A stretch of 64,000 nt of DNA from Escherichia coli (GCF_030013595.1 NZ_CP122768.1), one strand, 5' to 3'; positions 7,428 through 16,946 are shown, counted from the stretch's first letter. Notes: generated from the letters alone by a model not told the origin. Numbers and translations: made by a program.

Positions 7428-9332
7428 TTAGAACGATGTTACCCAGCTACGGCCTCTATTTGGGCGTCTGACGATGTTTTGACGTTGTGGTCGTGTGATT
7501 GGCTTAGTTTCTTCGATTTGCTCGTCAGATTGCGATTTAGGAGCTTCTACAGGTTCTTCTGGTTCACGGTTCAAACTATCTTTGATGGCTTCGAGTTTTT
7601 CCCATGACATTTTATTGAGTACATGACGAGAAGCAGCATAGGAATAAGCCAGGCAGTCCAACGCTTCGTTTCGTGTTTGTCCAACTTTTACCCAACGTGT
7701 GGTATTACCCTGCCGTTTCAACTGTTCAGAAAGCAATTGCTCGCAATAGTCATCAGGAACGTCACCAATCTGGAAGACAGTGTGAGGATCGCCATCTCTC
7801 AAGTTCCGGTTAATCATTTCACGGATCATCGTTTTAAGGTTGTTTACGCCCAGAATTTTAAGGGTAAAACCACCCGTTCTTGTGTCTTTTACCGGAAGGA
7901 TTGGTGCATCAACATTGCTTGCGCCTTTAATGGCGGTTAGATTTTGCCACCGACTACAGAATCGATAGATCACGTTTGTAGCTCGTCCGTTCGATGAGTC
8001 CACGAAAGCAGATAACATCGGGATTCGTTCACCGGATCGGGTATAGAATTTAGCTTTCAGGAAGTTGTAAAGCTGGTTATATGCTGGTGATTCGTGGCGT
8101 TCGCAGTTCACATCATAGAATGATCGGTGATCAACTACGCATAGCCCTTTACGAGAAATACCCAGCAAGGTAGATTCCAGACGGTCTTTTTGCTGGTCAA
8201 CTCCACCTACCAGAGCCAGTACATCATCAGGAATATTGTCTAGGCTAATATCAGTTTTCAGCGTTTCTAATTCGTCGGCTGTGCGGTCTTCGTTAAGATC
8301 ATCGAAGGTTTCACCGAGGACTGTATTGTAGAACGTTGCCAGGGACATATTCGCGTAGCTATCAGCAAAGTCCACCACACACGCACGGATAGAACTAAAC
8401 GGAGACATAAGGCGGTTAGCATGAAAACCGATTACTTCCGCGTTTGGTTCGGTGGCGACCCATTCTCCCTGTCCAACAGCACGTAGGCGATCACCCTCGG
8501 TCCAATCGGTTTCACATTCAGGGCAACGGTAAACGGCTGTATCTGGGTTGGGTAATGATTTACCGTTAATCGTATGCCAATCGAAATGTACGTTACTCCA
8601 TTCCATTACGTGCTTGTGTCCGCAATGCTGGCAAACGACATGATATTTTCTCTTATCCGAGAGTTCCCATTGTTGGTTAATCGCCCCATCACGAGCGGTT
8701 GGAGTGGAAGCAATTACGATCCTTGCATCTTCCCCGAAAGTGGTTGCGCGTTGTTCCGCTAGTTGGATCGGGTTCCCTTCGTCTGACTCATCAGCCGCAT
8801 CAACTTCATCAAGAATAATCAAAGGGAGTGTTTTACCGCGAAGATGTGACGGACTATTCAACGACATGAAATACATAAACGATCCGTTACGAAGCTGAAT
8901 AATCGATGAGTTGTTAACGGCATTGCGATCTGATTTGTCGGTGATCATCGCCTTTAATTCTGGTGTTGCCTCTAATACTGGCTTCACCTTACCAGCGATC
9001 CAAGAATTTAGTTCTCTAACGTTACTTTGCAACACCCCAATATTAGTAGGGTTACTCGCGATCCGATGGAAGATAATTCCGTTAAGAATCATGGTCTTAC
9101 CCAACTGTGCCGAACATTTAAACACAATTTTTCTACGGTCTTCGGTGATCGCGTCCATCATTCCACGTTGGAAGGGATGCAATTTAATTAGCGATCCGGC
9201 TTTAACACCATCGGTTGCAACTACATTAGCCTCTACCCATTCGCTAGGTTTCATCGTTTTAGGTGGGCGAATTGCCGCAGAGATATTTTTAAGAATCTTT
9301 TTTAATTTTGCCTTGTTCGAAATCAGTTTCAT
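7428..9332 (-). CDS. Terminase large subunit, lambda GpA family, 634 aa
   Basis: ORF track; recalled lambda gpA similarity: ..HPFQRGMMDAI.. near N-terminus, Walker-A-like KCSAQLGKT, C-terminal RNEALDCLAYSYAA matching gpA RNEALDCFVYALAA. Confidence 0.85.
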   Translation of the reverse strand: MKLISNKAKLKKILKNISAAIRPPKTMKPSEWVEANVVATDGVKAGSLIKLHPFQRGMMDAITEDRRKIVFKCSAQLGKTMILNGIIFHRIASNPTNIGVLQSNVRELNSWIAGKVKPVLEATPELKAMITDKSDRNAVNNSSIIQLRNGSFMYFMSLNSPSHLRGKTLPLIILDEVDAADESDEGNPIQLAEQRATTFGEDARIVIASTPTARDGAINQQWELSDKRKYHVVCQHCGHKHVMEWSNVHFDWHTINGKSLPNPDTAVYRCPECETDWTEGDRLRAVGQGEWVATEPNAEVIGFHANRLMSPFSSIRACVVDFADSYANMSLATFYNTVLGETFDDLNEDRTADELETLKTDISLDNIPDDVLALVGGVDQQKDRLESTLLGISRKGLCVVDHRSFYDVNCERHESPAYNQLYNFLKAKFYTRSGERIPMLSAFVDSSNGRATNVIYRFCSRWQNLTAIKGASNVDAPILPVKDTRTGGFTLKILGVNNLKTMIREMINRNLRDGDPHTVFQIGDVPDDYCEQLLSEQLKRQGNTTRWVKVGQTRNEALDCLAYSYAASRHVLNKMSWEKLEAIKDSLNREPEEPVEAPKSQSDEQIEETKPITRPQRQNIVRRPNRGRSWVTSF

Positions 9333-9423
9333 GTAATTACCCTCATTACGAAATATGAAGGTATTTATTAAATTGTTGATATTTTGATAAATATGGGTAT
9401 TAAGGCAGAGTTCTTTATGTCGG

Positions 9424-9453
9424 TTGACGATGGAGAACTTTTTCCGATAAAAT
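9424..9453 (+). promoter_or_regulatory. Candidate sigma70 promoter for the 77-aa gene
   Basis: TTGACG, ~17 bp spacer, ATAAAA/TAAAAT about 45 bp upstream of the start codon. Confidence 0.4.
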
Positions 9454-9498
9454 GTAAGTCCTCTAAATAAAGGTGAACATTCACTTTAATTTGGAGAA

Positions 9499-9732
9499 AT
9501 GACTATGACTACTAAAGCTACTCGCGGTCGCCCTGCCCGTTATACTCGTGAACAGATGGCTGATATTGCCTACGCTTACTATACAGCGGATCGCGGGAAG
9601 GAAGCGAAAGAACAGATTCTTAGTGAACATGGGATTTCAGTAGCCCAATTCTATAAGAATATGAAGAAGTTAGACATTAAATTCTATGTTCAGATCGATG
9701 ACGGTCAGATCGTAGAAGCAACAGGTTTTTGA
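9499..9732 (+). CDS. Small putative DNA-binding protein, 77 aa (paralog of 13446..13628)
   Basis: ORF track; N-terminal RGRPARYTRE motif shared with the second small protein (ARPVKFTRE); own promoter and terminator. Confidence 0.45.
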   Translation: MTMTTKATRGRPARYTREQMADIAYAYYTADRGKEAKEQILSEHGISVAQFYKNMKKLDIKFYVQIDDGQIVEATGF

Positions 9733-9740
9733 TTCTCTTT

Positions 9741-9764
9741 GCCACTCTTCGGAGTGGCTTTTTT
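9741..9764 (+). terminator. Rho-independent terminator of the 77-aa gene
   Basis: GCCACTCTTCGGAGTGGC followed by TTTTTT. Confidence 0.6.
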
Positions 9765-9792
9765 GTATCTAAGTTATTGATTTTCTCGAACT

Positions 9793-9835
9793 TCACAATT
9801 TGTGGGAGTCGGGAAACATCCACAATTTGTGGGAG
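9793..9835. repeat. Two direct copies of CACAATTTGTGGGAGT (27-bp period), each with an 11-bp palindromic core CACAA-T-TTGTG
   Basis: Read directly; lies between two convergent terminators. Confidence 0.6.
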
Positions 9836-9844
9836 TTGGATAGT

Positions 9845-9872
9845 AAAAAGCCCCACCATTACGGCAGGGCTT
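9845..9872 (-). terminator. Rho-independent terminator of the 183-aa gene
   Basis: Minus-sense AGCCCTGCCGTAATGGTGGGGCT followed by TTTTT. Confidence 0.55.
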
Positions 9873-9876
9873 CTAA

Positions 9877-10428
9877 TCAGATTCCGAAGATGTCACATAG
9901 GTCGGCTGTGTGGCGTTCTTGTTTTGAATAGTAAATCCGTTCAGCTTCATATAACGTGATAGAATCATCATTAACGACGGTTTCAAACTCCCCTTCTATT
10001 ACCCTTTCTGTGTGCGCTTTACTGCGTAATTCGGCCTCTTCCATGCGATATAAGCCAATACAGATACTACCATATACACCATATTTTTTCTCGTCGAGAT
10101 GGCGACGACCTTTGCGTTGTTCGAACGGAAGATCGTAAGCGGTTATCTTTTTGCGGCGAACTCGATCATATCCACTCTCTTTGGCATCAATCATCATACT
10201 AATCAACATCCCACATTTAACAAGGGATTCAAGGCACTGACGAATAGAATTAGTTCTTGATTGTTTTAATTCTGGGTTAGGATCGTAATATGGATTATCT
10301 ATCCATGATTCATGAATAAGGAAATGTACGTCATCAGCCGTTAAAGGCCAACCACCAACACTTTCAACATCGGTCTTAGTACAATCAAACAGATCCAGAA
10401 TGAATTTCTTTTTGTGCGTCATTTTCAT
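9877..10428 (-). CDS. Hypothetical protein, 183 aa
   Basis: ORF track; last gene of a four-gene minus-strand operon; no family recognised. Confidence 0.45.
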   Translation of the reverse strand: MKMTHKKKFILDLFDCTKTDVESVGGWPLTADDVHFLIHESWIDNPYYDPNPELKQSRTNSIRQCLESLVKCGMLISMMIDAKESGYDRVRRKKITAYDLPFEQRKGRRHLDEKKYGVYGSICIGLYRMEEAELRSKAHTERVIEGEFETVVNDDSITLYEAERIYYSKQERHTADLCDIFGI

Positions 10429-10523
10429 AATGTTCTATCCTCAAAATACTTAAAAAGTACCATGCCGATTTTCGCGGCATGGTCAAAAAATCACCATACA
10501 CCCAATGGGCGTTTGGTTAAAAA

Positions 10524-11363
10524 TTAGATACCAAAGACAGCAAGTGATCCGGCGTTCTTACGAATCAATGCGGCGGTATTATTAACGATTGCACGAGCAT
10601 TGTTAGGCTGCGGTAATTTCAAAGTTGCTATCGTCTCTTCCTCAATCAAGCCCAATTCAACCAGCACTGGTAAACAGTCAGTTGTGAACTCAAGCTGACC
10701 ATGTGCTGATTGTCGGGCATACATGTAAGCAGGAGGAAGAACATCATAGCCACAAGGCTTACCAGAAGCATCCAGACGGCGCTCAATGTGTTTAGCCTCA
10801 CACAATCCCTTAAGAATACGTTGTACCTTCGTAGAGCCTCGTTTTTCGCCCAATAAGCGGGTTAAGCTGTGCCCGTCAATGGCACGGCGAACATGAAGAT
10901 CAATTAATTGTTCTTTTTCTTCCGCTAAAGTCAGAGCCTTACGAATCCAATCAACTTCGGTCATCTTGCTTGCGTCTGGGAAAGCGTTATTCTTTAATTC
11001 TTCATTTTCTTTCTTCAAACGCTGCCATTCATCAACCAGCATTGCGGTATAAACCGGATCGGTCTGTGCGATAACAATGTAGCTATCACGTTCAGTCAGA
11101 AGATAAACTTCAATTGGTTTGCCTTTACGGCCTAAACGGTCAGTTTTTGACCAAAACGCCACTGGCGGTTTGGTTACAATTTGAGCTTCAACCAGACGAT
11201 CAACCGTTCTCATAATATCGGTGTGACGGTTTTCACGCCCCATTAGTTCAGCAATACGCCAGGTAGAAATTGATAATTCTTTCTCTACAGAGTCATTTGC
11301 AGCAGTCAGGTCAACAGAAGAAGCAGTTTTAACAGCAGTATTCATAGTAGTAACAGTATTCAT
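10524..11363 (-). CDS. Rha-family phage regulatory protein (antirepressor-like), 279 aa
   Basis: ORF track; N-terminal ..STWRIAELMGRENRHTDIMRTVDRL.. resembles the Rha-domain pattern (recalled); C-terminal domain unrecognised. Confidence 0.5.
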   Translation of the reverse strand: MNTVTTMNTAVKTASSVDLTAANDSVEKELSISTWRIAELMGRENRHTDIMRTVDRLVEAQIVTKPPVAFWSKTDRLGRKGKPIEVYLLTERDSYIVIAQTDPVYTAMLVDEWQRLKKENEELKNNAFPDASKMTEVDWIRKALTLAEEKEQLIDLHVRRAIDGHSLTRLLGEKRGSTKVQRILKGLCEAKHIERRLDASGKPCGYDVLPPAYMYARQSAHGQLEFTTDCLPVLVELGLIEEETIATLKLPQPNNARAIVNNTAALIRKNAGSLAVFGI

Positions 11364-11451
11364 AGTAGTAATTCCCCTTTCGGTTTAGTGATATTGATCC
11401 TCCTAGTTCCGGCATCACCACCGGAACATTTTTATTTATGATAGAAATTTA

Positions 11452-11784
11452 TTACCAATCGATTTCTACTTGGTCTTCTTCATAATAAGGAATCGCATAT
11501 TCATAACGCCAATTTTCGATGATTTCACGTTCTTCATTAGTAAGAAGGTGATTGTTAACTGGAGTCGCATTGTGATTACCAGCTTCGAATTGCTCGCGAA
11601 CTTCCAGCATTGCATGAATACCAGTTAAGGACATCAGATCAAACGGAACATGCATACTACGGGAGATTGTTTCACGGGATACGCCCCAATCATTTTCTAC
11701 ATGGCTAGGGGTTACAGAAACGGTTTTGCCGGAGATTTTAACAGTCCAGTCATACAGGGATTTAGTGATGGTAAATTCTTTCAT
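11452..11784 (-). CDS. Hypothetical protein, 110 aa
   Basis: ORF track; directly downstream of a consensus promoter. Confidence 0.4.
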   Translation of the reverse strand: MKEFTITKSLYDWTVKISGKTVSVTPSHVENDWGVSRETISRSMHVPFDLMSLTGIHAMLEVREQFEAGNHNATPVNNHLLTNEEREIIENWRYEYAIPYYEEDQVEIDW

Positions 11785-11825
11785 GTTACATCCTCTTTAC
11801 AAATCTAGGTCAAATAGGTTCAAAG

Positions 11826-11883
11826 TTGTCAAGTGCGATAATCATAAAAAAGTTTGAAGATATTGTCAAATACCACTTGACAA
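11826..11883 (-). promoter_or_regulatory. Consensus sigma70 promoter (TTGACA-17-TATGAT, minus strand) bracketed by a 10-bp inverted repeat TTGTCAAGTG / CACTTGACAA
   Basis: -35 at plus 11864-11869, -10 at plus 11841-11846; inverted-repeat arms at 11826-11835 and 11874-11883. Confidence 0.5.
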
Positions 11884-11905
11884 GACACCAAAGGGTTGAC
11901 CTAAC

Positions 11906-12094
11906 TTACAGCATATCTAAGCCTTCATCGTAACCGTAGAAGCCATTCTGAGAAGAGAAGCAGATTGGTGCGTAGTCGTCGTCATCTTCGTCTTGTTCAT
12001 CTTGTTCTGGGGCTTCCTGAGCGGTTTCTTTGCCGTAGTTAAACATGGCTTCATCCAGTTCATAGTGGAAATCCTCTAAAAGAAAGTGAATCAA
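11906..12094 (-). CDS. Small strongly acidic protein (62 aa from TTG; 46 aa from internal ATG); frame uncertain
   Basis: ORF track (TTG start); acidic run EAPEQDEQDEDDDDY; an alternative overlapping frame has the better SD. Confidence 0.25.
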   Translation of the reverse strand: MIHFLLEDFHYELDEAMFNYGKETAQEAPEQDEQDEDDDDYAPICFSSQNGFYGYDEGLDML

Positions 12095-12700
12095 TCTAAT
12101 ATTATTTATAAAGAGAAAATTCTTGTTATTATGAAAGGAGTGATCTGGTAGAGTCCAAAACTGGTCTGTACTTGAAAGGTGATTGGATTCAGTCGGGCAA
12201 AGCCCTCCTTCATGTTTTGATTAAATCATCATCAAAACGAAGAAGTATCTTTAGAATATAAGATCTTTCTTTTGGAGAAATAATAATCAGGAAGCAATTT
12301 GGCAACCGAAGGTTGCAATCCCGAAGGGATAACCAATACCTTTCTAGAAAGTGATTGTTACTCACTTCGTTCGTTTACTAGAATCAGTTATCATCTGGTA
12401 TTAAATCCCTTTCTAAGAAAATCCTTTCAAAAGTGATTCTCGATGCCACGCAGTGGCGTCGCAGACGTTTGGGAGTGAGCGAAGCGAGCGAGCAAACTAG
12501 TTAATTCCTTCTAAGACCATCTAGTATCATCTAGTTTAAATTAGTTGTTACTAGAAGCAATTGGTTGGCGCTTCGCGCAGTCGGGCTAAAGCCCTCCTAA
12601 TTATCTTTTTGGTTATTTGTTGTTTTTAGTTTTACACATGAGCGTAGCGAATGTGTTATATAATATCTATGCACGCCCAATCCCCCGCTTTTTCCCCTCA
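12095..12700. other. ~600 bp hairpin-dense non-coding region (candidate structured RNA or DNA-level origin/packaging signals)
   Basis: No ORF; many short-loop hairpins (GCAACC-GAA-GGTTGC, ATCCC-GAA-GGGAT, GCCAC-GCA-GTGGC, GCGC-TTC-GCGC); CTAG-rich; ~20-bp direct repeats CAGTCGGGC(T)AAAGCCCTCCT at ~12190-12209 and ~12578-12598. Confidence 0.5.
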
Positions 12701-12743
12701 CTAAGTTAATGTTTTATAAAGAGTTTTTCTCACCAATCCTTTT

Positions 12744-12931
12744 CGGGGGCAAATTTCAGGGGCAAAAATTAGATTTTCAGGGGCAAAAATAGTGGGTTTC
12801 AGGGGCAAAAATGAGGGGCAAAATCACTGTTTCCCAGAATTTCAGGGGCAAAAATAGTGGGTTTCAGGGGCAAAAATGGGATGTGGAATCTAGGGGATTT
12901 TGGTTCAGGGGCAAAATTCAGGGGCAATTTT
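12744..12931 (+). repeat. Iteron array: 9 copies of (TTCA)GGGGCAAAAAT, including an exact 38-bp duplication
   Basis: Read directly; copies at ~12746, 12759, 12780, 12802, 12815, 12845, 12867, 12908, 12921; 38-mer TTCAGGGGCAAAAATAGTGGGTTTCAGGGGCAAAAATG at 12777 and 12841. Confidence 0.85.
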
Positions 12932-12968
12932 CATAGTGTAGGGCTAGTGTAGGTTTGAAAATCCTTTG

Positions 12969-13025
12969 TTGACACTGTGTAGGATCGGTGGTATACTTGA
13001 AAATTCGAGATAAATATGTTATAAT
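12969..13025 (+). promoter_or_regulatory. Tandem near-consensus sigma70 promoters next to the iterons
   Basis: P1 TTGACA (12969-12974), 17 bp, TATACT (12992-12997); P2 TTGAAA (12997-13002), 17 bp, TGtTATAAT (13017-13025). Confidence 0.55.
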
Positions 13026-13171
13026 ATTTGTATTGAAAGTGAAAATTTACCGATTTTCCTTCCTATTGTTATCACCGTGTTAAATTGTTATATGTCTGTG
13101 AAGATTTGGATCTGAGAGAAAATCTTGTAACAAATCTTTACAATTCATAGCTCAATTAATGCTCACCGCTT

Positions 13172-13310
13172 TAGCAAAAAGTGCTATGCCTTTTTCTAAA
13201 TTGATTGAATATACATCAATTTGGTTAAATCGTGTTCTTCGCTTTAGCAATTCGTGCTGTGGTTTAACACATTTAACACGTCTGATAACATCTGAATAAC
13301 ATTTTAACAT
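13172..13310 (+). promoter_or_regulatory. Operator-like palindromes and phased TAACAY repeats upstream of the 60-aa gene
   Basis: TAGCAaaaagTGCTA (13172-13186) and TAGCAattcgTGCTg (13245-13259); five TAACAC/TAACAT copies at ~10-11 bp spacing in 13264-13310. Confidence 0.45.
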
Positions 13311-13445
13311 ATCTCTGTTATAAATACATATATAAGAGATAAATGTGAGGGGTTGAAAAATAAAATACAATCCCATATAAATAATAGTGAGCGGTTAACG
13401 CTCTTTTTTAAGAAATCATTAATCCACATTGTAGGAGGATTCGAG

Positions 13446-13628
13446 ATGGCACGACCTGTTAAGTTCACTCGCGAAATCATCTTAGAAATGGCTAAACGCT
13501 ACTTTGAGTTAACGCCGGGTGTGAGAATTGAAGAGTGGTTTAAAAATGAGGGCATCGATAAATCAACCTTTCATAAACTGCTAAAACGATATGACATTAA
13601 AGTGAAGATTGAAGCTACCGTTTGGTAA
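13446..13628 (+). CDS. Small putative DNA-binding protein, 60 aa (paralog of 9499..9732)
   Basis: ATG with AGGAGGA SD inside tracked ORF 13353..13628 (which begins at TTG); MARPVKFTRE motif. Confidence 0.5.
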   Translation: MARPVKFTREIILEMAKRYFELTPGVRIEEWFKNEGIDKSTFHKLLKRYDIKVKIEATVW

Positions 13629-13742
13629 TCAACTTTGACTGAGAATTATATGATGGCTTTAAAAAAGAAAAAGCCTCCTTTGCTGCAACAAGGGAGGCTT
13701 GAAATGAACAATTAAAACTAACTTTCCATAGGAGTATTTATA

Positions 13743-14684
13743 ATGTTATTTTCCGCTAACTTTTTCACTAACGAAGTAACCAACGCTAAAGCAGTTATCA
13801 AATTTGGCACCGAAGCAAACAAGAAGATTCAGCCGAAAGTTGTTGCTCATGTTTCCTTTGCGCAGCAGAAATCCGCTTTCGCTGGCTTTAAAGCACATCG
13901 TGAAGCACTGATCGCGGCTGGCTTTGGTGTTGACGGTAAACTGCCTAACGGCATTCGTAAAGCAATCGACCGCGTTAAACCAGTTAAAGACGTTGCAGTA
14001 GACCACATCGTTACTTTTACCGTTAAGAACTCTTCTGAACTGTTCCACCTGGTTATTGCTGGTGATACTGCTATCGTTTCCGCTCCTAACATGGATTTTC
14101 AGGATACCGCTGATTGCCAGATCACCTTCGGTCGTCGTAAAGAAGTTACCGGAAAAGCTAAACTGAACTTCACTAAATCCGGCAATCCTTACTTTGCTGT
14201 ATTCTTTAACAGCCACGCTACCGAAAAAGAAGTTGTAGAACTGGTTGCTTATGAAGGTGAAGAGAAAGAACGTATTGAATCTTGCGAAGCATTTCTGGAA
14301 CTGGAAGCACAGGTGAATGCTGTTTCTCCGGTTGTTGAAGATCGCTTTGCTGCACTGGAAGCACAGATCGCAGAACTGAAAGCTGCACTGGAAGAAAAAG
14401 ACCAGATTATCGAAGCACAGAAAGCTGAGATTGAAGAACTGAAAGCTAAAGAAGTTGCTCCGGTGGCAGTAGTTGAAAACGCGGCTGATGAGGCCGCAAA
14501 TGATGAAGTAGAAGTGAAAATCGATGTGATGCGTGATCCGATGGCTGCACTGCAATTACTTCGTTCTTTTAAGGGCAAATCTCATTTTTCTAGTGATGTA
14601 GAAGATGAGGAAGAAGAACAGAAACGCAATGCTGCAATGCTTCATGATGAAATGTACGGTACTAACTTTTCTTACTGCCAATAA
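13743..14684 (+). CDS. Hypothetical protein, 313 aa: unrecognised N-terminal domain, coiled-coil, acidic C-terminal tail
   Basis: ORF track; AGGAG SD; heptad-like ALEAQIAELKAALEEKDQIIEAQKAEIEELKAKE; no NTPase or nuclease motif seen. Confidence 0.5.
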   Translation: MLFSANFFTNEVTNAKAVIKFGTEANKKIQPKVVAHVSFAQQKSAFAGFKAHREALIAAGFGVDGKLPNGIRKAIDRVKPVKDVAVDHIVTFTVKNSSELFHLVIAGDTAIVSAPNMDFQDTADCQITFGRRKEVTGKAKLNFTKSGNPYFAVFFNSHATEKEVVELVAYEGEEKERIESCEAFLELEAQVNAVSPVVEDRFAALEAQIAELKAALEEKDQIIEAQKAEIEELKAKEVAPVAVVENAADEAANDEVEVKIDVMRDPMAALQLLRSFKGKSHFSSDVEDEEEEQKRNAAMLHDEMYGTNFSYCQ

Positions 14685-14707
14685 AAAAAGGGACTCCGAA
14701 GAGTCCC
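14684..14707. terminator. Terminator hairpin (A-run/hairpin; works for minus-sense transcripts, possibly bidirectional)
   Basis: AAAAAA then GGGACTCCGAAGAGTCCC immediately after the 313-aa stop. Confidence 0.5.
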
Positions 14708-14780
14708 TAGTAAGTTTAGGTTAGGTTTGCACAACAAAGATGAGGTTATAATGAATATAATGCTACATTATTCTTTAAAG

Positions 14781-14811
14781 CCAGAAAAATAACCGCCCCC
14801 TTCGGGGCGGG
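14781..14811 (-). terminator. Second minus-sense terminator hairpin
   Basis: CCGCCCCCTTCGGGGCGG with T-rich tract on the minus sense; ~100 bp from the previous hairpin. Confidence 0.4.
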
Positions 14812-14968
14812 AGGATTAATACTCAATCTATACTTGTTATGTTTTTATGTTGTATAGTCACTGACTATGAAAACACTGTACTGAATGTGTTTTATGGCTT
14901 TTAATCGGGAACTCTCTTTCGAAAATTCCCTGTTAAAACCACATAAGGAGAAAAGGCAGATTACAATA

Positions 14969-15253
14969 TTATTTAGTCTGTTTGAAAACGAACGTTAAAA
15001 ATTCGATTAAGCAATATACCCAAAGTACGGTCAGCATCAAATGCATAGCAATAGTTGGATGGAAGTTAAAAAGTGTCATACTAACTAGGCCAACAATATA
15101 AGAAATTCCTTCGACAATTAACGCAAGGCTAGCAAATGCAACAAACGCACCTAAGAATAATTCGCCTCGTTCTTTCGGTTCGGTTCCGAGTTTATAAGCA
15201 GAGATAGCAGCCAGAATAGTAATGATGACAGCATAGGTAATAAAAGTAGCCAT
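14969..15253 (-). CDS. Small membrane protein, 94 aa (three predicted TM helices)
   Basis: ORF track; AAGAGGA SD; hydrophobic segments separated by charged loops. Confidence 0.5.
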   Translation of the reverse strand: MATFITYAVIITILAAISAYKLGTEPKERGELFLGAFVAFASLALIVEGISYIVGLVSMTLFNFHPTIAMHLMLTVLWVYCLIEFLTFVFKQTK

Positions 15254-15269
15254 AGTTTTATATCCTCTT

Positions 15270-15298
15270 AAAAGTTAAGCGGGGGATGTTCTCCCCCG
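15270..15298 (-). terminator. Terminator after the terS-like gene
   Basis: Hairpin CGGGGGATGTTCTCCCCCG with T-rich minus-sense tail. Confidence 0.45.
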
Positions 15299-15345
15299 TA
15301 GACGTTGACCATCAACATCTTTCATACATTTATTTATAACGCGTT

Positions 15346-15903
15346 TTAAGACACATCAAATTCATCGTCTTCTTCTGGTTCTTGTTCTTCCGGTTCATCC
15401 ATTAATGGTAATTCTTCTTCCTCGTCTTCTCCCAAATCTGCATTTTCGAACAAGTCCCCTACTTCATTTAAACGACGCTCGATGATCTCCCTTAGCTTAT
15501 TCTTTAATGTTTTCTGGTCATTGGCAGATTCGAGAATTTCTAGGGCATCGATCGTACAAATCTGCAAAATAGTCTGCTTCACTTTCCCGCAATATTCCGC
15601 TAGTTGCTGTTCTACATAACCGACAGGAATCAGGAGGTTCATTTTTTCCTGATTCTCTCGTTCGGCTGCATCTGCCATTGCTCTTTCTCTGCGGAGACGT
15701 TCTTGATCAATCGCTTCTTTGATTGAAGTTTGTTTAAGTGGGTTAATTACGTTCTTTAGCACCCAATCGCAACCTTCCTTTGCCGGAACACGCCTCTTAT
15801 TGGTATTGTAAGGTAGTCCCCTTTCTAACCATCGCTTACCGCCACCATTCAATGTATAGCCATATAAACGGGAAATTTCTGTAAGGGTTAATTCTTCTTT
15901 CAT
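15346..15903 (-). CDS. Nu1-like small terminase subunit candidate (winged-HTH protein with acidic C-terminus), 185 aa
   Basis: ORF track; strong GGAGGA SD; GGGK and W.ERGLP motifs loosely like lambda Nu1 (recalled); first gene inside the element boundary. Confidence 0.4.
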   Translation of the reverse strand: MKEELTLTEISRLYGYTLNGGGKRWLERGLPYNTNKRRVPAKEGCDWVLKNVINPLKQTSIKEAIDQERLRRERAMADAAERENQEKMNLLIPVGYVEQQLAEYCGKVKQTILQICTIDALEILESANDQKTLKNKLREIIERRLNEVGDLFENADLGEDEEEELPLMDEPEEQEPEEDDEFDVS

Positions 15904-16350
15904 TGGTTATCCTCCATTAAATTTGCGTAATTTTATTTATTGGTTTTACGCAAAATCTAAGCGCCTAAATCGCATTCTAACGAAGGGAAAGATCCAGTAA
16001 TGGTAAGGGCTAGGAAGTGGGTTAATAGTCGCGTAGCGACCGCGCTAGGACTGCACTGATCACGTTTTAAAATCTCACACGCACATCAAAAACCGGGGTG
16101 CCGAAAACTCGCTTTATCTGACCCCGATCCAGAACCTAAATCATTTGTCAAGTCTTTCCGATTCAGTAAAGGGGAACATGCATCTAAGCTAGAGAAGCTC
16201 ATAAAGACTAAGTATGAATGCGGTGTTGTTAGTCGGGATGATATGCGAGACGGTTACACTGAAACGCTACCATTTGAAGCATTGCCGGAGATCATCACTA
16301 TCACCAACAAAATGATAAGCGAAAGCATCCTCGTAAGTAATTGATTCCTA

Positions 16351-16380
16351 AGCCCTGTCCTTGTGATGGGGCTTTTTTAT
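16351..16380 (+). terminator. Hairpin plus T-run at the element edge (third member of the AGCCCTG...GGGGCTTTTT family)
   Basis: AGCCCTGTCCTTGTGATGGGGCT followed by TTTTTT. Confidence 0.45.
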
Positions 16381-16394
16381 TGGAAAAATTTTAG

Positions 16395-16724
16395 TTATTG
16401 GGGTTTACAACATTTAGGTTTGCCAATTCGTCTGGCTAACTCTTGCTGAGTGATTTCTGACTGTAAAAAAGCATTTAACAGCAATACCTTAGAGGCGACA
16501 CTCAAAGGCACTTCAATAAAGTGATCGTGACTATTTAATGGCGAAGGTAACGGGATAAGCTCGTTATCTTCAAAATAAAAATCAAATGCGGTCAGTAAAG
16601 CATCTTTTGCCGCTTCCATCGCTTCAGCAACTGTTTCGCCCTGGGTCAACGCTTCAGGGATATCCACAAAAGAAACCATATAACCGCCTTCCGGCGCGGG
16701 TGTAAGAGTGACGGGATAACGCAT
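16395..16724 (-). CDS. hicB: HicB antitoxin, C-terminally truncated at the element junction
   Basis: Matches recalled K-12 HicB from MRYPVTLTPAPEGGYMV.. through ..ARRIGKPK, then 5 non-native codons (CCKPQ) and a stop; C-terminal DNA-binding domain missing. Confidence 0.7.
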   Translation of the reverse strand: MRYPVTLTPAPEGGYMVSFVDIPEALTQGETVAEAMEAAKDALLTAFDFYFEDNELIPLPSPLNSHDHFIEVPLSVASKVLLLNAFLQSEITQQELARRIGKPKCCKPQ

Positions 16725-16769
16725 AATTTCGACTGTCTCTCGCATGTCATTAACCTTTTTAATTGGCGA

Positions 16770-16946
16770 TTAACTCAAACCGAGTTGCTTCAGGATTGCT
16801 TTACGCAATGGTTCTTTAATCTCATCGCAGGGGTGACGCGGCATGACACTGCGCCTCCCGTGAAACCTGAGTTTTAAATGGTTGCTGCCATTCGCTACAT
16901 CGACGCCCTGAGATTCGAGCCAACGTCTGAACTCGCTTTGTTTCAC
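16770..16946 (-). CDS. hicA: HicA mRNA-interferase toxin, 58 aa, GTG start
   Basis: Hand translation VKQSEFRRWLESQGVDVANGSNHLKLRFHGRRSVMPRHPCDEIKEPLRKAILKQLGLS; below the ORF-track size cut-off. Confidence 0.7.
   Translation of the reverse strand: MKQSEFRRWLESQGVDVANGSNHLKLRFHGRRSVMPRHPCDEIKEPLRKAILKQLGLS

Follow-up and report, generated by a model that had tools for sequence, protein, structure and literature searches.

A fixed position beside the small terminase gene (terS) of an uncultured prophage lineage houses interchangeable small membrane proteins within a conserved RNA frame. In the 64,000-nucleotide stretch of Escherichia coli DNA analysed here (the window), this slot holds an uninterrupted ATG-to-TAA ORF of 94 codons on the minus strand (14969..15253), the product of which is predicted to be a three-helix inner-membrane protein. 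Our tentative reading, at a probability of roughly 0.35, is that it is a throttled, membrane-compromising late protein that acts in the manner of holins or small membrane toxins, a statement that concerns its mode of action and not membership of a known holin family.

The 94-aa ORF is a genuine gene under purifying selection. Among nine E. coli loci the pairwise dN/dS was 0.1-0.35 and variable sites were distributed 8/5/18 over the three codon positions, and all nine alleles that were translated are intact. At a nucleotide identity of at least 90% the allele was identified in 30 of 5,426 complete E. coli genomes, in each case over the full 285 bases. The dN/dS values exclude a chance ORF, and a recent foreign insertion is excluded by composition, which is not deviant: the GC content of the ORF is 37% and that of the surrounding prophage arm 34-45%, hence it is no outlier. 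Identical copies of the protein are represented in RefSeq by WP_000190126, labelled hypothetical protein.

Kyte-Doolittle windows gave three hydrophobic stretches (approximately residues 1-20, 32-62 and 68-90), and an AlphaFold2 model for which ten homologues were supplied placed helices at residues 2-22, 26-64 and 66-93 with a mean pLDDT of 83.8. By charge count the N-terminus carries no charge throughout the family and is predicted to be periplasmic; loop 1 is basic, with 1-3 K/R, and predicted to be cytoplasmic; the short loop 2 is either acidic or neutral and contains an invariant proline. The protein ends in K-Q-T-K (four residues, +2), a tail predicted to be cytoplasmic, and the tails of its homologues have 4-6 residues with 1-2 K. 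This charge distribution fits an N-out/C-in topology. A signal peptide or lipoprotein is excluded, the N-terminus having neither a basic n-region nor a lipobox. A sequence-only reading of this DNA had described a 94-aa three-TM protein with its own Shine-Dalgarno sequence (SD) and tandem terminators downstream, and this description holds throughout: the ORF is intact and preceded by AAGAGGA 9 nt before the ATG, hydropathy, modelled helices and charge pattern agree on three segments, and two terminator-like hairpins follow on the same strand.

The slot is occupied in 46 of 46 distinct loci from five genera (E. coli, Salmonella, Providencia, Proteus and Edwardsiella were counted), a figure that takes in every distinct locus with terS and enough downstream DNA. 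The hydrophobic ORF or ORFs lie directly in the slot in 45 of these loci, and in the 46th the cassette has been displaced by an IS4-family insertion and is still present. The slot is never empty and is therefore a fixed feature of the phage lineage with exchangeable content; the occasional add-on that the sequence-only reading implied does not match a position that is filled in every relative examined. The content includes 92-98-aa three-TM homologues, a pair of 33-aa and 57-aa ORFs, and unrelated 74-76-aa two-TM proteins. The Providencia slot carries a 98-aa homologue (hhalign probability 98%), and those of Proteus and Edwardsiella carry unrelated proteins of 74 aa and 76 aa that have two helices and a long basic loop and are predicted to be N-out/C-out. 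In about half of the E. coli prophages the slot holds the 33-aa ORF (one helix) and the 57-aa ORF (two helices), which were left unannotated by PGAP; each has its own SD, and both are intact and in frame in 16 of 16 complete distinct sequences. This pair replaces the 94-aa gene in loci L013-L016, L004 and L096. When the window is compared with these alleles, nucleotide identity mostly exceeds 80% in terS and the 3' flank and is only 20-50% in the ORF, and across the E. coli allele classes the non-coding flanks are 80-100% identical as against the same 20-50%. The three-helix and 57-aa alleles all end in ...TK because the conserved flank ACTAAATAATAKTGTMAT begins within the last two codons. When IMG/VR was scanned with this flank motif, 27 loci of the family were retrieved, most of them on viral contigs 23-45 kb in length; the 94-aa allele is present in eleven and the 57-aa allele in sixteen.

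Allele class appears from these comparisons to be independent of the rest of the phage. Between E. coli ES2, with the 94-aa allele, and 14EC029, with the 33+57-aa allele, the tape-measure protein is 91% identical, the tail-tip protein 90%, the endolysin 97% and a 56-aa membrane ORF near the endolysin 100%, so that in this pair the slot allele shows no co-variation with the tape-measure, tail-tip or endolysin genes. The cassette has a constant order, namely a TATAAATA box, two tandem hairpins, an SD, the ORF, a structured 3' UTR of about 185 nt and two terminators. The Providencia cassette is parted from terS by an AbiTii gene that runs on the opposite strand; since every cassette element is kept there, the cassette is a unit in its own right.

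Several insertions were observed at this position. In locus L003 (E. coli PE15, NZ_CP041628.1) the colistin resistance element ISApl1-mcr-1-pap2-ISApl1 lies inside the 57-aa allele of the cassette, and in other strains the gap from terS to the cassette has received IS421 (L004) or an IS4-family element (L096). The hairpin region may therefore be a preferred site of insertion. Variable cargo was also found near terS, including a GIY-YIG nuclease, lysozyme-inhibitor proteins of the LprI family, a reverse-transcriptase-TIR protein encoded upstream of terS, and AbiTii in the gap that separates terS from the cassette (loci L124 in Providencia, L121 in Edwardsiella, and L004/L013/L017 and L016 in E. 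coli). The prophage arm around terS looks like a hot spot for anti-phage or accessory genes.

The upstream part of the RNA frame lies between terS and the ORF on the minus strand. The conserved TATAAATA box (15331..15338), found in five genera, might serve as a -10 element or mark a site of RNA processing, and in Providencia it travels with the cassette, parted from terS by another gene. About 10 nt downstream of it lies hp1 (15300..15320), a 9-bp hairpin whose sequence is wholly different in Providencia, Proteus and Edwardsiella, where a hairpin is still present. One nucleotide further follows hp2 (15280..15298), a G+C-rich hairpin followed by CTTAACTTTT, which is terminator- or attenuator-like and is kept in five genera with compensatory changes. 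Across the E. coli and Salmonella sequences 5 of the 16 hp1/hp2 pairs show compensatory changes, and in Providencia, Proteus and Edwardsiella the layout of box, hp1 and hp2 is retained with folding z-scores of -2.3 to -4.6. The SD AAGAGGA (15263..15269) comes next, and in the Providencia and Salmonella alleles the SD region folds into a local hairpin.

Downstream, the approximately 185 nt from the stop codon to the first terminator fold as hairpin A, hairpin B and terminator T1, with compensatory changes in 19 of 33 pairs. Hairpin A (14896..14940, minus strand) has 18 pairs, 8 of them with compensatory (double) changes, and 98% of its alignment cells are paired; none of 500 shuffles matched the observed values on four of five measures and 5 of 500 did so on the fifth, and slid-register controls collapse. 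Read from the other strand, several of its G-U pairs would turn into C-A mismatches, which assigns the structure to the sense RNA of the membrane gene. Between hairpins A and B lies the TTTTCATAGTC box (14863..14873), predicted to be unpaired, whose core TTCATAGT is identical in 10 of 10 aligned sequences from E. coli, Salmonella and Providencia. Hairpin B (14828..14857) has a stem of 6-9 bp with compensatory changes and an 18-nt A-rich loop. Directly 5' of T1, the unpaired conserved AAUCCUCC (14810..14817) is complementary to the SD (GAGGAU), from which a putative anti-SD role is inferred. T1 (14785..14810, hairpin core 14810..14793) consists of a 7-bp G+C stem followed by a T-run, and T2 (14683..14708, core 14708..14689), which is bidirectional with a minus-strand T-run, lies right after the stop codon of a convergent gene encoding a 313-aa protein; the region has 9 terminator-like sites where 3.2 are expected. 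An Rfam scan of 9300-16500 at E<=1 returned nothing for the 5' or 3' structures, and the covariation-supported RNA frame, which belongs to no described family, appears to be new. The interval between the terminators (14709-14784, minus strand, about 80 nt) ends at T2 and contains, besides a conserved UGUGUUGUU-AAACCUAA stretch, another C/U-rich motif; it could be a separate small RNA. When this interval was scored as a candidate antitoxin-like sRNA, its duplex scores against the translation start region were inconsistent across three alleles (z of -2.2, +0.6 and -3.3, with differing partner regions).

The membrane protein itself is, as far as the searches reach, a lineage-restricted orphan; the gene was already annotated, and its lineage restriction is new. 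Comparison with Pfam (which includes the T4 Imm family), PHROGs, NCBIfam and PADLOC gave nothing meaningful and no homology to any holin, superinfection-exclusion (Sie) or defence family. Profile searches at E<=10 with six alleles (seven proteins in PHROGs) found no Pfam, PHROG or NCBIfam match, and tblastn and blastn against 50,697 phage genomes gave only a trivial match, to terminator T2. No match at E<=0.001 was obtained in a PDB sequence-profile search or with Foldseek against BFVD and PDB, and the literature yielded nothing of relevance on the RefSeq ids of the protein or on serine-recombinase prophages integrated in hicB. With HMMER, 1.84 billion representatives gave 6 clusters, and a profile search over 5.8 billion proteins gave 20 clusters, all from E. 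coli or Salmonella, 92-95 aa in length and 30-98% identical. Homologues of the 94-aa protein are confined to E. coli, Salmonella and Providencia, and those whose context was read lie in the same slot after terS, convergent with the same pair of genes for an HTH and a coiled-coil protein. A profile search with terS widened the lineage by three genera (Providencia, Proteus and Edwardsiella), and a scan of IMG/VR for distant terS relatives found the same lineage only. Homology to a conserved phage structural membrane protein, which the sequence-only reading had named as telling against its proposals, was looked for and none was found; the holin-like, superinfection-exclusion and abortive-infection functions that it had put forward are candidates.

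Positions 1 to approximately 16,390 of the window are the right arm of a prophage with genes mostly on the minus strand. It includes genes for a 668-aa capsid-family protein, a portal protein and then a gpW-like head-tail joining protein, all on that strand, followed by a gpA-type large terminase gene (terL, 7428..9332, minus strand), a variable block with a Rha-like gene, a stretch of about 1.5 kb without annotated genes (11785-13352), and the plus-strand pair encoding the HTH protein and the 313-aa coiled-coil protein, which converges on the membrane gene. The upstream neighbour of the latter encodes a Nu1-like TerS of 185 aa (15346..15903, minus strand) that matches PHROG 57 (E=2.7e-11 over 145 residues). 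PF07471 (Phage_Nu1) was recorded for two TerS homologues, P0082 and P0102 (faint for P0102, whose locus was read), the window protein itself having no direct Pfam match, and PGAP labels some copies 'terminase small subunit'. By this profile match the neighbour is probably a Nu1-type small terminase. The sequence-only reading had placed the membrane gene beside a terS-like gene and inside a packaging region: the first part stands, as the two genes adjoin, and the second does not, as terL lies 5.6 kb from the membrane gene beyond the convergent operon and the gene-free stretch of about 1.5 kb. Together, terS and the membrane gene form an isolated two-gene unit and not a part of a packaging operon.

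The prophage ends in the window inside hicB, which is cut to 116 aa. The chromosomal hicAB toxin-antitoxin locus (16395-16946) is the attachment site, with hicA intact and the 3' end of hicB lost. In E. coli ES2 an identical membrane protein is encoded by an element of about 36 kb inserted in ycdX, with a large serine recombinase at its far end and an M15 endolysin ending the tail operon, and one further relative is inserted in a cytosine permease gene; related serine recombinases therefore differ in their targets. The lineage appears to be uncultured and to resemble no cultured phage: tblastn with TerS found no match in the phage genome collection, and the best TerL match there has 44% identity.

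Other features of the arm were noted. At the left end of the window, positions 1-794 of the plus strand share 78-94% DNA identity with gp37, the gene for the distal long tail fibre in T4-like lytic phages; this segment lies on the strand opposite to the head genes, and the ES2 counterpart is a different tail-fibre gene on the minus strand, which suggests a mosaic or inverted tail-fibre module. In the middle of the gene-free stretch, with divergent gene blocks on either side, repeats of the form TTCAGGGGCAAA(A/T)(A/T)T at 12742-12940 (four copies of a 24-nt family and three of an overlapping 43-nt family) gave no Rfam match and could be origin iterons, terminase binding sites or a partition site. 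A similar gap of about 1.2-1.5 kb is present in 8 of 9 Logan/NCBI loci read from E. coli, Salmonella, Providencia and Proteus; in one locus a gene is called within it, and Edwardsiella carries genes at this place. The terS leader (15904-16152, minus strand, about 250 nt) is conserved in the E. coli and Salmonella relatives and contains CTTGACAAA-N8-AGGTWCT, a terminator-like hairpin and a dyad rich in G+C, GCGGTCGCTACGCGAC (16043-16027). Some 20 nt ahead of the terS SD it also has an inverted repeat of 7 bp, TGCGTAA-N15-TTACGCA (15952-15924). In lambda, cosN-cosB lies upstream of Nu1, and by analogy the leader may be a cos region or else a regulated late promoter; in a search for a motif common to this leader and other operons, as a shared late promoter would provide, both motifs tested occurred once only.

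A consensus scan found no sigma-70-type promoter before the ORF or before terS, and the gene is therefore taken to be co-transcribed with terS. On the plus strand there is no terminator near the cassette and no promoter nearer than 13,302. In the preferred holin-like reading, the membrane gene would be transcribed along with terS, late after induction and at a low level, and the terminator-like hp2, as an attenuator, and RNA structure around the SD would throttle its expression. The scarce protein would insert in the inner membrane, oligomerise and compromise the barrier, and this damage would set or assist lysis timing for the signal-less M15 endolysin of the phage.

The ES2 endolysin is a 117-aa M15 peptidase (PHROG 894, E=2e-46) without a predicted membrane segment, and the slot protein is the sole annotated polytopic small membrane protein of this prophage. 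Among the five ES2 genes around the endolysin and four att-proximal ones no convincing holin-family match was found, the best score (E=0.037) being that of a single-TM coiled-coil protein, and no embedded lipoprotein spanin was found in the lysis region. As neither a recognisable holin nor a lipoprotein spanin is present, the lysis system of the lineage is non-canonical. The ES2 lysis region (locus L002, 19646-21547) encodes, upstream of the endolysin, a 92-aa protein with one N-terminal helix and a coiled coil, a weakly hydrophobic 56-aa protein and two soluble proteins.

The likeness to class I holins such as lambda S105 and P2 Y lies in size (about 90-105 aa), three helices, a predicted N-out/C-in topology and an uncharged N-terminus, and a phage with a signal-less endolysin needs a holin. 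The gene is constrained, and its slot is fixed in position and always filled. In lambdoid phages the holins are constant in protein class and unrelated in sequence; the slot protein likewise keeps its class among related phages with unrelated sequences, and its replacement by non-homologous two-TM or 33+57-aa proteins between conserved flanks would, by analogy, be a holin hallmark. Phage T7 has its holin gene (17.5) directly beside terS (gene 18) and distant from the endolysin, a layout that the slot gene, adjoining a late packaging gene, resembles. Against this stand several differences. Class I holins have a long charged cytoplasmic C-terminal tail; the slot protein has a charged tail of only four residues, no dual-start motif and no profile match, and appears by sequence and fold to be similar to no holin. 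Its gene is outside the lysis cassette, approximately 30 kb from the endolysin, which in ES2 and 14EC029 stands at the far end of the tail operon, and is flanked by elaborate conserved RNA structures that class I holin genes do not have. Of the features of that class, the three-TM N-out/C-in form is present as a prediction, and the long charged tail, the position in a lysis cassette and family membership are absent. The Proteus and Edwardsiella variants with their long basic loop are predicted to be N-out/C-out with two TM segments, to our knowledge not a holin topology. The 56-aa and 92-aa membrane ORFs, being nearer the endolysin, could include the true holin, and slot allele class does not co-vary with the endolysin. 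Strong terminators insulate the unit, AbiTii parts it from terS in Providencia, and the TATAAATA box, were it the cassette's own promoter, could make the unit moron-like.

A close rival of the holin-like reading, possible and on balance unlikely, is that the slot encodes a superinfection-exclusion or immunity protein of the inner membrane, which would be made from the repressed prophage and would block the DNA-injection conduit of related phages. HK97 gp15, P22 SieA and T4 Imm block DNA injection by related incoming phages, and the slot protein resembles all three (SieA having 162-164 aa and three TM segments) as a small helical inner-membrane protein of a temperate phage. P22 SieA and HK97 gp15 are the closest precedents: SieA, with three TM segments in the inner membrane, occurs as three types that share less than 30% identity (PMC10883804), and gp15, the product of a moron, is a small protein of the inner membrane (PMC3594210). 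In common with Sie genes, the cassette is an insulated transcription unit, equipped with an SD, a pair of terminators and a TATAAATA box that is kept with it despite AbiTii, and it has strongly divergent allele classes at the same genomic position between conserved flanks; the att-proximal arm also gathers cargo in relatives (LprI-family, GIY-YIG nuclease, RT-TIR and AbiTii proteins). Unlike Sie proteins, the slot protein is much shorter than SieA and has no homology to them: the characterised Sie families (SieA, gp15/YebO and Imm) gave no Pfam, PHROG or tblastn match, the last against the 50,697 phage genomes. The consensus scan detected no sigma-70 promoter from which a repressed prophage might express the gene, the slot is present in every relative and never empty as a typical moron would be, and allele class does not follow the tape-measure and tail-tip genes, which are 90-91% identical across different classes. 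An SD-sequestering structure and an upstream terminator would also be unusual in a constitutively expressed protective gene.

It is rather improbable that the slot encodes a locked membrane toxin of type I character, in which SD sequestration, local or by the anti-SD in the 3' UTR, would keep the mRNA inert; similarly improbable is the further step, in which processing would unlock the mRNA and the peptide would depolarise the cell, resulting in prophage stabilisation or abortive infection. The hydrophobic product recalls hok/sok, aapA1/isoA1, GhoT and OrtT, of which GhoT and OrtT are small two-TM toxins, and the highly structured 5' and 3' UTRs, which are covariation-supported, recall those of hok and aapA1. 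As in locked type I mRNAs, some alleles have the SD in a predicted local hairpin, and a motif resembling an anti-SD is found close to the 3' end. The conserved unpaired AUCCUC 5' of T1 complements the SD, in Edwardsiella GUCUCC stands opposite the SD GGAGAC, and in MFE folds of the whole transcript the SD-like GAGGA pairs with 3' UCCUC in 6 of 11 alleles; against this, long-range pairing over 6 bp, as seen in MFE folds, counts as weak evidence, and the T1-T2 duplex scores are inconsistent in three alleles. The 33-76-aa hydrophobic peptides of other alleles suit a toxin, and the 33-aa and 57-aa products would fit within the limit of at most about 60 aa and one helix that marks type I toxins. 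The 92-98-aa three-TM proteins, the 94-aa one included, are well beyond this size and single-helix pattern, and no antisense RNA gene, antisense promoter or terminator, or Rfam antitoxin family was found. On these family searches, the protein appears to belong to no known holin, Sie or type I toxin family.

The same RNA evidence allows for an undescribed RNA-controlled phage cassette, a proposal that we regard as doubtful, in which leader and 3' UTR would lock or time the translation of interchangeable membrane-damaging proteins. Such a cassette, no less doubtful as a type, would combine the logic of holins with that of type I toxins and would be fixed beside terS throughout the lineage. The 3' UTR, with its invariant box, A-rich loop and anti-SD, may also be released as a 3'-UTR-derived sRNA.

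Quite improbable is a reading in which the RNA is primary and the small membrane ORFs have a minor or unrelated role, the region serving as an insulator or terminator block or as the source of a 3'-UTR-derived regulatory RNA between convergent operons: the greater conservation of the flanks than of the ORF in E. coli, the compensatory changes in 19 of 33 3'-UTR pairs and the TTTTCATAGTC box core, invariant in all 10 sequences, would agree with it, but the ORF is under purifying selection within its allele class, the split-allele ORFs keep SD and frame in all 16 complete distinct sequences, and every replacement is again a small membrane protein, where a passenger ORF would have decayed.

A sporadic moron is excluded, as no locus among the 46 has an empty slot and the composition is not deviant. 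The morons of HK97 and HK022 were reportedly defined by Juhala et al. in 2000. The cassette resembles the morons defined for these phages (PMC3594210) as a self-contained unit with terminators (T1 and T2) between two phage operons, encoding a small envelope protein; unlike them, the slot is never absent from relatives, neither patchy presence nor deviant composition is seen, and its own promoter is putative.

Small phage membrane proteins govern lysis timing and phage entry, and most of them are still orphans. Here a single slot is reserved for such proteins by an uncultured lineage that about 1% of complete E. coli genomes carry and that extends to Salmonella, Providencia, Proteus and Edwardsiella. 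Small membrane orphans are common in prophages; with a slot that is obligatory and set in an RNA frame, the function of this one is unusually easy to test. What is new is a fixed cassette that exchanges non-homologous small membrane proteins, unannotated ones among them. If the holin-like reading is true, the slot would supply the missing holin of the lineage and reveal a new way of controlling it; were the exclusion reading true, it would define a new Sie family.
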